From Escherichia coli (lineage in GTDB: Bacteria > Pseudomonadota > Gammaproteobacteria > Enterobacterales > Enterobacteriaceae), in assembly GCF_030384885.1 (NCBI RefSeq), contig NZ_CP128613.1: DNA of 64,000 nt; one strand, given 5' to 3'. Shown in pieces: positions 25,601-28,600 of the stretch. The position numbers were made by a program. How positions within the stretch are numbered: the first letter of the stretch is position 1; each line of letters begins with the position of its first letter.

Positions 25601-28600
25601 GACTGCTATTGCATCCAGCGCTGATTTTCCATGCCGGTATCCGTATGAATCATTCAGGAAATAACGCTCCACTAATGGTTCAAACGTTACCAGCACCGTC
25701 ATCTGCGCTATTCGATCGCTTACTGTCGGTATTCCTAAAAGTCTTTTGCTGCCATCCTTCTTCGGAATTTCCACCGCACGCACTGGCGGCGGCATCCAGC
25801 TTCCCGACGATAACCTGTTCCAGATTTTGTACAGATTTCCTTTCAGATCCCGCTCAAAATCTTTCAGCGTCTGGTTATCCACTCCGGCAGCTCCGGCATT
25901 CGCCTTTATCCGCCGGTACGCTTCCACCACATGCAATTTACTGACCTGAAACGGTTTTGTCTGTTCACACACAGCCTCCTCCTGCCTACAGTTGGGCTGT
26001 GATGCAGACTGCCCGACGCTGTCCCTTCGCTCCACGTTCATTACAAACGCTTCCTCACTACTACGAACAGCTCTGCCCCGGTTTCGCACATCGATACTCT
26101 CATACTCATAATTTCGGTTATTTGTATTTCTCTCTTGACATTGCGACGACCGGTTCCCGTAGTTCCTGCAAAGAGCCCGATACAGCGTCATGCCTGCTAT
26201 ACACCGGACATCATTCACGCAGCATTCGGAATTCACCCGTAAATTAATCCCGGCGGTATCACGAAACCTCCGGTTTTGATGTCACTTAGGACTAACGACG
26301 TTTCAACACAGGTTCGGGTTTACTCATCTCACTGTATCTCACATAGGATCAGATCTCGTCTGATCGTTCCCCCTGCGCTCACTACCATGGCTCTTTACCA
26401 CAGCAGCCGGGGTTGTTTGGGACCGACTTCCGACAGCAGATCCCGGTGGGCCTGCCACCATCTCTTCACAAGCTTATGCTTATTACATGCAAAACGTCCC
26501 GTTTTGCATCTTTGTGCCTACGGCACACCGTAATCTTTCCCTGTGTCATTAGTGCGTTCTCAACAATGCACAGTCTGGTTATCGGACAGATCAAGACGGA
26601 TGAGAAATCCAATGAAATTACAGCTATCCCTGAACTTCTTAACATGCTGGATATTAAAGGAAAAATCATCACAACTGATGCGATGGGTTGCCAGAAAGAT
26701 ATTGCAGAGAAGATACAAAAACAGGGCGGTGATTATTTATTCGCTGTAAAAGGAAATCAGGGGCGGCTTAATAAAGCCTTTGAGGAAAAATTTCCACTGA
26801 AAGAATTAAATAATCCAGAGCATGACAGTTACGCCATTAGTGAAAAGAGTCACGGCAGAGAAGAAATCCGTCTTCATATTGTTTGCGATGTCCCTGATGA
26901 ACTTATTGATTTCACGTTTGAATGGAAAGGTCTGAAGAAATTATGCGTGGCAGTCTCCTTTCGGTCAATAATAGCAGAACAAAAGAAAGAGCCAGAAATG
27001 ACGGTCAGATATTATATCAGTTCTGCTGATTTAACCGCAGAGAAGTTCGCCACAGCAATCCGAAACCACTGGCACGTGGAGAATAAGCTGCACTGGCGTC
27101 TGGACGTGGTAATGAATGAAGACGACTGCAAAATAAGAAGAGGAAATGCAGCAGAATTATTTTCAGGGATACGGCACATCGCTATTAATATTTTGACGAA
27201 TGATAAGGTATTCAAGGCAGGGTTAAGACGTAAGATGCGAAAAGCAGCCATGGACAGAAAGTATCTGGCGTCAGTCCTTGCGGGGAGCGGGCTTTCGTAA
27301 TCTTTCCCTGCCCTGCTCACCTCCTCCAGGCACTTCCACAACATGATGACCTGATCGGTTGCCGCCTATCCTCCTCACTATGACCTTCACCTCCGCGCTT
27401 TTGCCTACATCCTGCACAATCGGCAACTTTTATAACCAGTGTAAAAATAACGTGCCGCAATAATCCTACCTATTAATGATAAAAAGCTGTCACAATTCAT
27501 AAAAAACTTTAATATACGCCACCCTAAACATAACCAGCGTTAATGTAAGGTTTTTGTGTGGACTGGCTTCTTGATGTTTTTGCAACCTGGCTATATGGCT
27601 TAAAAGTAATCGCGATAACGTTAGCGGTCATCATGTTCATCAGCGGGCTGGACGATTTTTTTATTGATGTCGTCTACTGGGTACGCCGCATTAAACGCAA
27701 GTTGAGTGTTTATCGCCGCTACCCGCGAATGAGTTACCGCGAACTGTATAAACCAGATGAAAAACCGTTAGCGATTATGGTTCCGGCGTGGAATGAAACG
27801 GGCGTCATCGGCAATATGGCCGAGCTGGCGGCGACCACGCTCGACTATGAAAACTATCATATCTTTGTTGGCACCTACCCCAACGACCCCGATACTCAGC
27901 GTGATGTTGACGAAGTGTGCGCTCGCTTCCCAAACGTGCATAAGGTAGTCTGCGCGCGTCCTGGCCCCACCAGCAAAGCCGACTGCCTGAACAACGTGCT
28001 GGACGCCATCACCCAGTTTGAGCGTAGCGCCAATTTCGCTTTTGCTGGTTTTATTCTGCATGACGCCGAAGACGTAATTTCACCGATGGAATTGCGTCTG
28101 TTCAACTATCTGGTCGAGCGTAAAGATCTGATTCAGATCCCGGTATACCCATTCGAACGCGAATGGACGCACTTCACCAGCATGACTTACATTGATGAGT
28201 TTTCAGAACTGCATGGCAAAGATGTTCCGGTGCGTGAAGCCCTCGCCGGACAAGTGCCCAGCGCAGGCGTCGGTACTTGTTTCAGCCGCCGCGCCGTGAC
28301 CGCACTGTTAGCTGACGGTGACGGTATTGCTTTCGACGTGCAGAGTCTTACTGAAGATTACGACATTGGTTTCCGCCTGAAAGAAAAAGGTATGACGGAA
28401 ATTTTTGTCCGTTTTCCGGTGGTGGACGAAGCCAAAGAACGCGAGCAGCGTAAATTTTTACAGCACGCGCGGACGTCAAACATGATCTGCGTGCGCGAAT
28501 ATTTCCCCGATACCTTTTCGACGGCGGTTCGACAAAAGTCTCGCTGGATCATCGGCATTGTTTTCCAGGGCTTTAAAACCCATAAATGGACCTCCAGCCT

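Follow-up and report, generated by a model that had tools for sequence, protein, structure and literature searches.

Two Head-to-Tail H-rpt Elements and a Group II Intron in the Right End of One of Them, Upstream of nfrB in Escherichia coli

Introduction

Upstream of nfrB in Escherichia coli lies an H-rpt element interrupted by a group II intron, and next to the intron a 15-bp sequence occurs twice in direct orientation, with part of a second H-rpt between its two copies. How did this repeat and the duplicated segment arise? We addressed the question in a stretch of 64,000 nucleotides from contig NZ_CP128613.1 (assembly GCF_030384885.1), which we call the window. Most probably, a complete H-rpt into which a known group II intron has inserted adjoins a resident copy that is truncated; the joint between the two is of the transposase type, and the intron arrived by independent retrohoming. 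The composite would consist of two head-to-tail H-rpt elements that follow an Rhs toxin/immunity module and precede nfrB. It is an ordinary mobile-element pile-up with one curiosity, an intron in the mirror-image end of an insertion sequence (IS).

Results

Origin of the repeated 15-mer. The exact sequence CGTAATCTTTCCCTG is found on the plus strand at 26529-26543 and 27296-27310, as an earlier note on this DNA had recorded, and no chance occurrence of an exact 15-mer is expected (100 shuffles). That note did not mention a third copy, inverted and with 1 mismatch, at 23366-23380, which identifies the 15-mer as an IS terminal inverted repeat. The 15-mer is confined to IS ends and is single at the right end of ordinary lone H-rpt copies; by these sequence matches, it forms the final 15 bp of the right-hand inverted repeat of ISEc1/H-rpt, an element of 1291 bp. 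It resembles a separate "direct repeat" because the intron severs the tip of the first H-rpt copy (copy 1) from the rest of it. Thus, the supposed 15-bp direct repeat consists of the right tips of two tandem IS copies, of which the first is cut off by the intron from the element it belongs to. A target-site duplication was also considered and rejected, as the 15-mer belongs to the IS and is not duplicated host sequence.

Copy 1 is a complete IS. Alignment to annotated ISEc1 copies places IS nt 1 to 1276 of copy 1 at 23366-24641 on the plus strand; beyond the intron, the first 15-mer (26529-26543, plus strand) supplies IS nt 1277 to 1291, the outer tip of the right inverted repeat, so that the two pieces make up the complete 1291 bp minus the intron. 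The tips, CAGGG...CCCTG, are part of a 25-bp imperfect inverted repeat and would stand 1291 bp apart if the intron were taken out; the left inverted repeat (IRL), with the tip CAGGGAAAGATCACG, spans 23366-23390 (plus strand). Over 1291 bp, copy 1 is 97.7% identical to ISEc1 of strain CFSAN029787, and its identity to K-12 H-rptC2 is 96%. An intact ISAs1-family transposase open reading frame (ORF) of 377 aa, annotated in RefSeq, runs from 23510 to 24643 on the plus strand and matches the DDE_Tnp_1_assoc and DDE_Tnp_1 profiles (E-values, 2.9e-33 and 6.3e-31). The usual protein has 378 aa; its final Ser codon is lost here because a TAG stop is made at the intron junction. The 377-aa protein is recorded in 269 blocks, whereas no intron-less allele of copy 1, with a 378-aa product, is on record. 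Judged by its transposase domains, inverted repeats, and sequence identity, the element belongs to ISEc1 (H-rpt) of the ISAs1 family.

On its left, copy 1 is flanked by an Rhs core fragment (23113-23365, plus strand); the left flanks of nfrB-linked H-rpt vary among strains, and this particular left junction is unbroken in a single one of 5426 complete E. coli genomes, that of strain 2013C-4282. No target-site duplication surrounds copy 1 (...CACTACC versus TGTCATT...) or the whole composite (...CACTACC versus CCCTGCT...). Such an absence is expected if deletion or recombination came later, and it bears on the origin of the joint, not on the identity of the element.

Copy 2 as the resident element. 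The second H-rpt (copy 2; 26544-27310, plus strand) comprises IS nt 525 to 1291. Lacking the first 524 bp, it has no transposase coding capacity and retains only positions 40 to 200 of the DDE profile. Its right inverted repeat is intact (27286-27310, plus strand) and ends with the second 15-mer. The near-identical duplicate of H-rpt codons ~128 to 377 noted earlier is borne out as a unit of 767 bp that begins with the third base of codon 127 and differs from the last 767 bp of H-rpt by 13 substitutions; the segment between the 15-mers aligns without gaps to 23890-24641 at 98.3% identity. The order given in that note, with an intact H-rpt, the intron, and a partial copy between the 15-mers, stands, but the "H-rpt tail" that it placed after the second 15-mer does not: the IS stops at 27310, and the next segment (27311-27557, plus strand) is the nfrB upstream flank, outside the IS and conserved beside the IS end in other strains.

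Comparison of H-rpt loci in related strains, a check that the note had proposed, is informative about which copy is older. The junction between the right tip of copy 2 and the nfrB flank, counted as present at ≥80% coverage, occurs in 2477 of 5426 complete E. coli genomes, and the nfrB-linked H-rpt is full length in the strains inspected. Because this junction is so common, copy 2 is, by its sequence context, the old resident H-rpt at the nfrB site. When the copies were compared with the nfrB-linked H-rpt of other strains, the mismatches numbered 11 versus 15. Copies 1 and 2 differ from one another at 13 of 767 positions (1.7% divergence), and their nearest relatives elsewhere are 98.8% (copy 1) and 99.1% (copy 2) identical to them; at the sequence level, they are different H-rpt alleles.

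The arrangement is real. The earlier note had pointed out that an assembly collapse would undo the duplication. H-rpt and the intron are both multicopy, short-read contigs often break there (L017-L019), and one draft contig (L020) links the intron to a different H-rpt. However, 13 positions distinguish the two copies, and an identical composite, at 100% identity, is present in the complete genome NZ_CP027579.1. The window's genome is structurally different from that of 2013C-4282, with an 8.95-kb deletion and different content to the right of tRNA-Arg, and the composite is the same in both. An ORF crossing the joint is recorded in 35 assembly blocks; 24 contigs were inspected, and each of the 5 places displayed has this ORF. 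Since the arrangement recurs in several independent assemblies, it is not an artefact; we consider a collapsed or misjoined repeat extremely unlikely.

The joint between the copies. At 26543-26544, the terminal base of copy 1 (IS nt 1291) abuts nt 525 of copy 2, with neither spacer nor homology. The joint reads ...TTTCCCTG/TGTCATT..., where an intact IS has ...GATTCA/TGTCATT; the natural left neighbor of nt 525 (...GCGATTCA) and the natural right neighbor of the tip (CCCTGCTC...) are unrelated. Among the 5426 complete genomes, only that of 2013C-4282 carries the tip-to-nt 525 joint unbroken. Neither novel junction had a match in a scan of JGI metagenome contigs, and none of the strains searched showed an intermediate in which a spacer lies between copy 1 and a full-length copy 2.

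These features weigh against two recombinational origins. Unequal homologous recombination between two H-rpt copies, only one of which carried the intron, was among the explanations offered earlier. It would have abundant substrates (a median of 5 to 6 matching places per genome), and Rhs loci are known as hot spots of recombination (PMC3032704). Misaligned homologous exchange, however, could not create the nt 1291/nt 525 joint, as the two positions share no homology and their neighbors are unrelated, and the 15-mer is found at IS ends only; we regard this origin as very unlikely. Alternatively, the last 767 bp of the resident H-rpt may have been duplicated in tandem in situ by slipped or illegitimate sister-chromatid exchange, with later divergence or gene conversion and subsequent entry of the intron into the first copy. 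The segments do lie side by side, point the same way, and are in register at a spacing of 767 bp. On the other hand, the boundary falls exactly on the terminal base of the IS, unlike that of a random duplication; each copy has a nearer relative elsewhere than the other copy; and a divergence of 1.7% is hard to reconcile with a joint present in just 1 of 5426 complete genomes. A duplication in situ therefore appears improbable.

Instead, a joint that lies at an IS terminus, without homology and without target duplication, points to a transposase-catalyzed event. Two routes can be envisaged: an adjacent deletion mediated by the end of copy 1 could have run into a copy 2 situated downstream, or copy 1 could have inserted into copy 2, whose left part would then have been lost. 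Both routes, and the sequence of steps in each, are inferred from the final arrangement. IS-mediated adjacent deletions and the nesting of one IS in another are known for other elements, e.g., IS1 and IS903; as here, the complete IS is kept, its terminal base is fused to a new neighbor, and there is no target duplication on that side. Unlike IS1 and IS903, ISEc1/H-rpt has no demonstrated adjacent-deletion or nesting activity, and its transposition has never been observed experimentally (PMC3032704).

A closer parallel is the H-rptC1/C2/C3 array downstream of RhsC in K-12 (ybfQ, ybfL, and ybfD). There, too, the tips of a complete 1291-bp H-rpt are fused to sites within truncated copies that face the same way, with no spacer or homology and with orphan Rhs tips upstream: C1 nt 381 abuts the left tip of C2, and the right tip of C2 abuts C3 at about nt 24. 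The breakpoints differ from nt 525 here, the K-12 array lies between ybfC and ybgA whereas the composite lies between cusS and nfrB, and K-12 has no intron. Tip-to-internal stacking of H-rpt at different Rhs loci hints at past end-specific activity of supposedly immobile elements.

The group II intron. Copy 1 is split by an E.c.I9-like group II intron of bacterial class D, 1887 nt long, on the minus strand (24642-26528). Its Rfam matches, RF01999 at 26342-26459 (93.1 bits) and RF00029 at 24642-24717 (62.8 bits), cover domains 1 to 4 and 5/6. The intron begins with GTGTGCC at 26528, so the first 15-mer does abut its 5' end as had been described, and it finishes with ...CTCACT at 24642; a 5' end of the GUGYG form, together with domains V/VI at the opposite end, marks it as a group II intron. 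The intron-encoded protein, ltrA (24719-26041, minus strand; 440 aa as annotated; RVT_1 and GIIM), has reverse transcriptase and maturase domains and lacks an endonuclease domain, the ORF stopping just past the maturase. Over 1885 nt (1.9 kb), the intron is 96.3% identical to E.c.I9 of ATCC 8739, which has the same length and ends, is the single copy in that genome, and likewise resides in an H-rpt/ISEc1 in an Rhs region; the class D assignment and the name E.c.I9 are taken from PMC3522654, whose Table 2 also gives a single copy for ATCC 8739.

What sets this copy apart is its position. In ATCC 8739 and 73 other complete genomes, E.c.I9 lies at its usual homing site, 15 bp inside the ISEc1 left inverted repeat and sense with the transposase; here, it interrupts the right inverted repeat of copy 1, again 15 bp in, and is antisense to the transposase. 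Left-end intron junctions thus occur in 74 of the 5426 complete genomes, and the right-end junction occurs in 1, 2013C-4282. The canonical site inside the IRL of copy 1, CAGGGAAAGATCACG/TAACGCTGC, is unoccupied. On the minus strand, the 15-mer reads CAGGGAAAGATTACG and is the 5' exon of the intron. The 15 bp of the IS tip would serve as the 5'-exon recognition sequence, which is present at both IS ends because it lies in the terminal inverted repeat; relative to the left-end target, the target here has T for C at -4 and A for T at +1. A candidate EBS1, CGTGAT (intron nt 266 to 271), is complementary to the last 6 exon bases and could pair with AUCACG or, via one G-U pair, with AUUACG. A search for EBS2 by complementarity and a minimum-free-energy fold of domain I returned only weak matches of 4 to 5 nt.

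The intron boundaries are identical to those of 6 other copies and match 5 copies that occupy left-end sites. The genome of 2013C-4282 carries a second copy of the intron that is 99.79% identical to the first, in a host IS that is only 96.6% identical to copy 1, which argues that the intron moved on its own. On the strength of these alignments, an endonuclease-less class D intron retrohomed independently into copy 1, 15 bp from the IS tip.

Could the intron also have generated the duplicated segment? Group II reverse transcriptases are capable of template switching, and the earlier note had suggested an aberrant retrohoming or template switch. In such an event, the enzyme, on reaching the 5' end of the intron RNA, would jump to an antisense transcript of H-rpt and copy 767 nt of exon sequence; the extra DNA does lie directly upstream of the 5' exon of the intron, and a transcript of another H-rpt as the template could give the 1.7% divergence. 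Both intron/exon boundaries are exact, however, and the extra DNA starts from the tip of the IS, 15 nt from the end of the intron, with the IS terminus as the breakpoint. Joints of the same tip-to-internal kind exist at K-12 RhsC without an intron, and the right junction of copy 2 is ancestral, so copy 2 is not newly synthesized DNA. We regard this explanation as very unlikely and place the production of the 767-bp copy by template switching below even the 3.9-kb transposable unit considered below.

Discussion

Why does the intron occupy the right end? In the window, the minus strand is the leading strand, as judged from Chi sites (0 versus 13) and GC skew (-0.035). In K-12, nfrB is on the minus strand; ydcC and ybfD, which usually host the left-end introns, belong to the same replichore but are encoded on the plus strand. 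With the IS in the present orientation, use of the right end would put the intron on the lagging-strand template, codirectional with the replication fork. RmInt1, also a class D intron that encodes only a reverse transcriptase and maturase and that homes into an IS (ISRm2011-2), reverse-splices mainly into the lagging-strand template (PMC8914252). RmInt1 belongs to another host, Sinorhizobium meliloti, and has another IS and another target sequence, but its preference agrees with the orientation seen here and, by analogy, we infer a similar preference for the E. coli intron. A replication-strand bias may thus account for the choice of the right end, a reading drawn from one right-end case and, for the left-end cases, from K-12 synteny. 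Within one IS copy, the canonical left site is empty and its mirror image on the right is filled, consistent with the strand bias of endonuclease-less group II introns.

The composite might be more than debris. By choosing the IS end that faces the lagging-strand template, the intron would inactivate that end; the truncated copy would then provide a replacement right end, and the repeats at 23366 and 27310 would bound a 3.9-kb transposable unit with the intron as cargo. We mention this as a long shot. Taken as the likelier juxtaposition of a complete, intron-split H-rpt and a truncated resident, the locus is of little importance on its own: its odd repeat is explained by a known IS and a known intron, and the structure, which is genuine, is a marker of one E. 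coli lineage.

Few of the sites available to E.c.I9 are occupied (PMC3522654). It counts against the proposed explanation that the right end of copy 2 has an empty site, between 27295 and 27296, which is the same as the occupied site from -15 to +13 and lies on the same favorable strand.

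The composite at the Rhs locus between cusS and nfrB is a real and ordinary pile-up of known mobile elements; a Rhs element at the cusS-nfrB site is known in strains W and Crooks (PMC3032704). Only one aspect is mildly new: a group II intron sits in the mirror-image end of an insertion sequence (IS), and this placement agrees with a replication-strand bias.

The 15-bp repeat is an IS terminus

The 15-mer CGTAATCTTTCCCTG matches exactly at 26529-26543 and 27296-27310, as an earlier note on this DNA had claimed, whereas none is expected by chance. The same sequence search found the 15-mer once more at 23366-23380, inverted and with one mismatch; this occurrence and the one at 27296 form the tips of an imperfect inverted repeat of 25 bp. 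With the intron excised, we aligned this stretch to the single copies of H-rpt (ISEc1, an ISAs1-family IS) of strains CFSAN029787 and M10. The element from CAGGGAAAGAT... to ...ATCTTTCCCTG is then exactly 1291 bp, and because this alignment ends the element in ...ATCTTTCCCTG, the 15-mer makes up the final 15 bp of the IS right inverted repeat. What had been described as a direct repeat is an IS terminus occurring twice; the intron cuts copy 1 of H-rpt 15 bp from its tip, so that the tip resembles a free-standing 15-mer. An "H-rpt tail" had been reported beyond the second 15-mer, but no H-rpt sequence is present there.

Two H-rpt copies are different alleles

Copy 1 is a complete IS (23366-24641 plus 26529-26543) with an intact ISAs1-family DDE transposase gene at 23510-24643. 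Copy 2 (26544-27310) comprises IS nucleotides (nt) 525-1291; of its DDE domain, only a part remains. Self-comparison of the window bore out the near-identical H-rpt segment between the 15-mers, aligning 26544-27298 with 23890-24644 without gaps at 98.1% identity; 13 mismatches fall across the full 767-bp repeat unit. The copies thus differ by 1.7%, and since the closest relatives elsewhere are 99.1% (copy 2) and 98.8% (copy 1) identical, the nearest H-rpt of each is elsewhere and not its partner here. The two copies are different alleles rather than a fresh duplicate. Copy 2 is the resident element at the nfrB site, because the junction of its tip with the nfrB upstream flank is at least 80% covered in 2,477 of 5,426 complete E. 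coli genomes, with one full-length ISEc1 at this junction in the inspected strains. Among the same complete genomes, strain 2013C-4282 alone has an uninterrupted match to each of three features: the left flank of copy 1, the intron/IS right-end junction, and the joint between the copy 1 tip and nt 525 of copy 2.

The arrangement is shared by other assemblies

The window matches 2013C-4282 at 99.97% for 21.3 kb and at 100% from 21296 to 34679. An 8.95-kb segment of 2013C-4282, carrying vgrG, a DcrB-like gene, and a full-length rhs toxin gene with the associated immunity gene, is absent from the window, and the sequences diverge after tRNA-Arg. Because of this deletion and divergence, the two genomes are structurally different, and they carry an identical composite. 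The deletion joint at 21297/21298 shows about 2 nt of microhomology, and only an orphan Rhs tip and a DUF4304 immunity-like gene are left. Beyond tRNA-Arg(tct) (34635-34711), an integration site, 2013C-4282 continues with ompT, appY, and a lambdoid prophage, and the window content differs; the window therefore comes from another strain.

RefSeq annotates a 274-amino-acid (aa) "ISAs1 family transposase" at 26476-27300 that begins in the intron 5' end and crosses the 15-mer into copy 2. This open reading frame (ORF) is an annotation artifact of the composite and serves as an exact-match marker of the joint. It is found in 35 blocks of public assemblies, and the exact 377-aa copy 1 transposase is found in 269. 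Assembly collapse, which the earlier note had left open, is excluded because both ORFs recur in public assemblies and the copies differ at 13 positions. In a draft contig (GCA_018090145.2, ABADRU020000024.1; 887-4825), the 15-mer, copy 2, and nfrB lie on the intron 5' side, and a left-end-type inverted H-rpt lies on the 3' side by metJ and a Peptidase_C92 gene; this contig reflects either a chromosomal inversion in which two intron copies recombined or chimeric assembly of short reads.

A group II intron in the right IS end

The intron extends from 26528 (GTGTG...) to 24642 (...CTCACT), 1,887 nt, with boundaries set by comparison with five other genomic copies (L004-L007 and L009, the last from 2013C-4282). 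Rfam models place domains 1-4 at 26342-26459 and domains V/VI at 24642-24717, both on the minus strand. A domain search of the intron-encoded protein found reverse-transcriptase and maturase domains and no endonuclease domain. The intron shares 96.3% identity with the only copy carried by E. coli ATCC 8739, named E.c.I9, a class-D intron that targets Rhs-associated IS (PMC3522654). Some match to it occurs in 2,565 of 5,426 complete genomes, and at least 80% of the intron in only 83; most matching genomes hold short, near-identical remnants, in agreement with recorded E.c.I9 fragments of 193 bp and 159 bp (PMC3522654).

In copy 1, the insertion point falls between IS nt 1276 and 1277. The 15-mer forms the 5' exon when read on the intron strand, and its last six bases are complementary to a candidate EBS1, CGTGAT (intron nt 266-271), with which it may pair. 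The intron usually lies in the left inverted repeat, 15 bp in from the tip and pointing the same way as the transposase; all five other inspected copies show this placement, as do 74 complete genomes overall. The mirror position in the right repeat is occupied only in this composite. The second intron copy of 2013C-4282 occupies the left end of the H-rpt at ydcC. The intron moved into copy 1 by itself, because identity is 99.79% between these two introns but only 96.6% between the IS copies that host them.

Across the whole window, the Chi sequence (GCTGGTGG) occurs 13 times on the minus strand and never on the plus strand, and GC skew is -0.035; thus, the minus strand is the leading strand throughout. 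This call agrees with K-12, where nfrB is a minus-strand gene in the clockwise replichore. The intron is therefore codirectional with the fork, as are the left-end insertions in ydcC and ybfD (plus strand, same replichore). RmInt1, an endonuclease-less class-D intron, inserts mainly into the lagging-strand template (PMC8914252), and such a preference would give exactly the orientation seen here. At the left end of copy 1, the canonical site (23366-23389) matches the consensus and is empty, whereas the occupied right-end site is near-cognate, differing at -4 (T replaces C) and +1 (A replaces T); an empty canonical left site and a filled right site are what the strand rule would predict. Copy 2 also has an empty right-end site (27286-27310), with the same sequence as the occupied one between -15 and +13; its vacancy fits the low site occupancy reported for E.c.I9 (PMC3522654). 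The occupied site is thus flanked by two empty homing sites.

Origin of the joint

At 26543/26544, the right tip of copy 1 (IS nt 1291) abuts copy 2 at IS nt 525 (...TTTCCCTG|TGTCATT...). Neither mechanism proposed in the earlier note fits this joint: unequal homologous recombination is ruled out because the natural neighbors of its two sides are unrelated, and aberrant retrohoming or a template switch fails to account for it as well. The breakpoint on the IS terminal base points to a transposase-type reaction. An adjacent deletion could have run from the copy 1 right end into copy 2 downstream; alternatively, copy 1 may have inserted into copy 2, whose left part would then have been lost, either through homologous deletion involving the 524-bp left parts of both copies or through another end-mediated deletion. 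Neither copy 1 nor the composite is flanked by a target duplication, which is consistent with both routes and proof of neither. The array downstream of K-12 RhsC has the same architecture but is intron-free: H-rptC1 nt 381 adjoins the left tip of complete H-rptC2, whose right tip adjoins H-rptC3 at about nt 24. Because this array lacks the intron, stacking is a recurrent H-rpt property independent of it.

Other repeats in the window

Repeats of roughly 0.5 kb with about 94.5% identity at ~4974-6459 correspond, by comparison with the 2013C-4282 annotation, to three tandem hokE toxin genes between entD and ybdK. At 47934-48129, a 100-bp unit in two tandem copies (96% identity) looks like an intergenic REP/BIME-type repeat.
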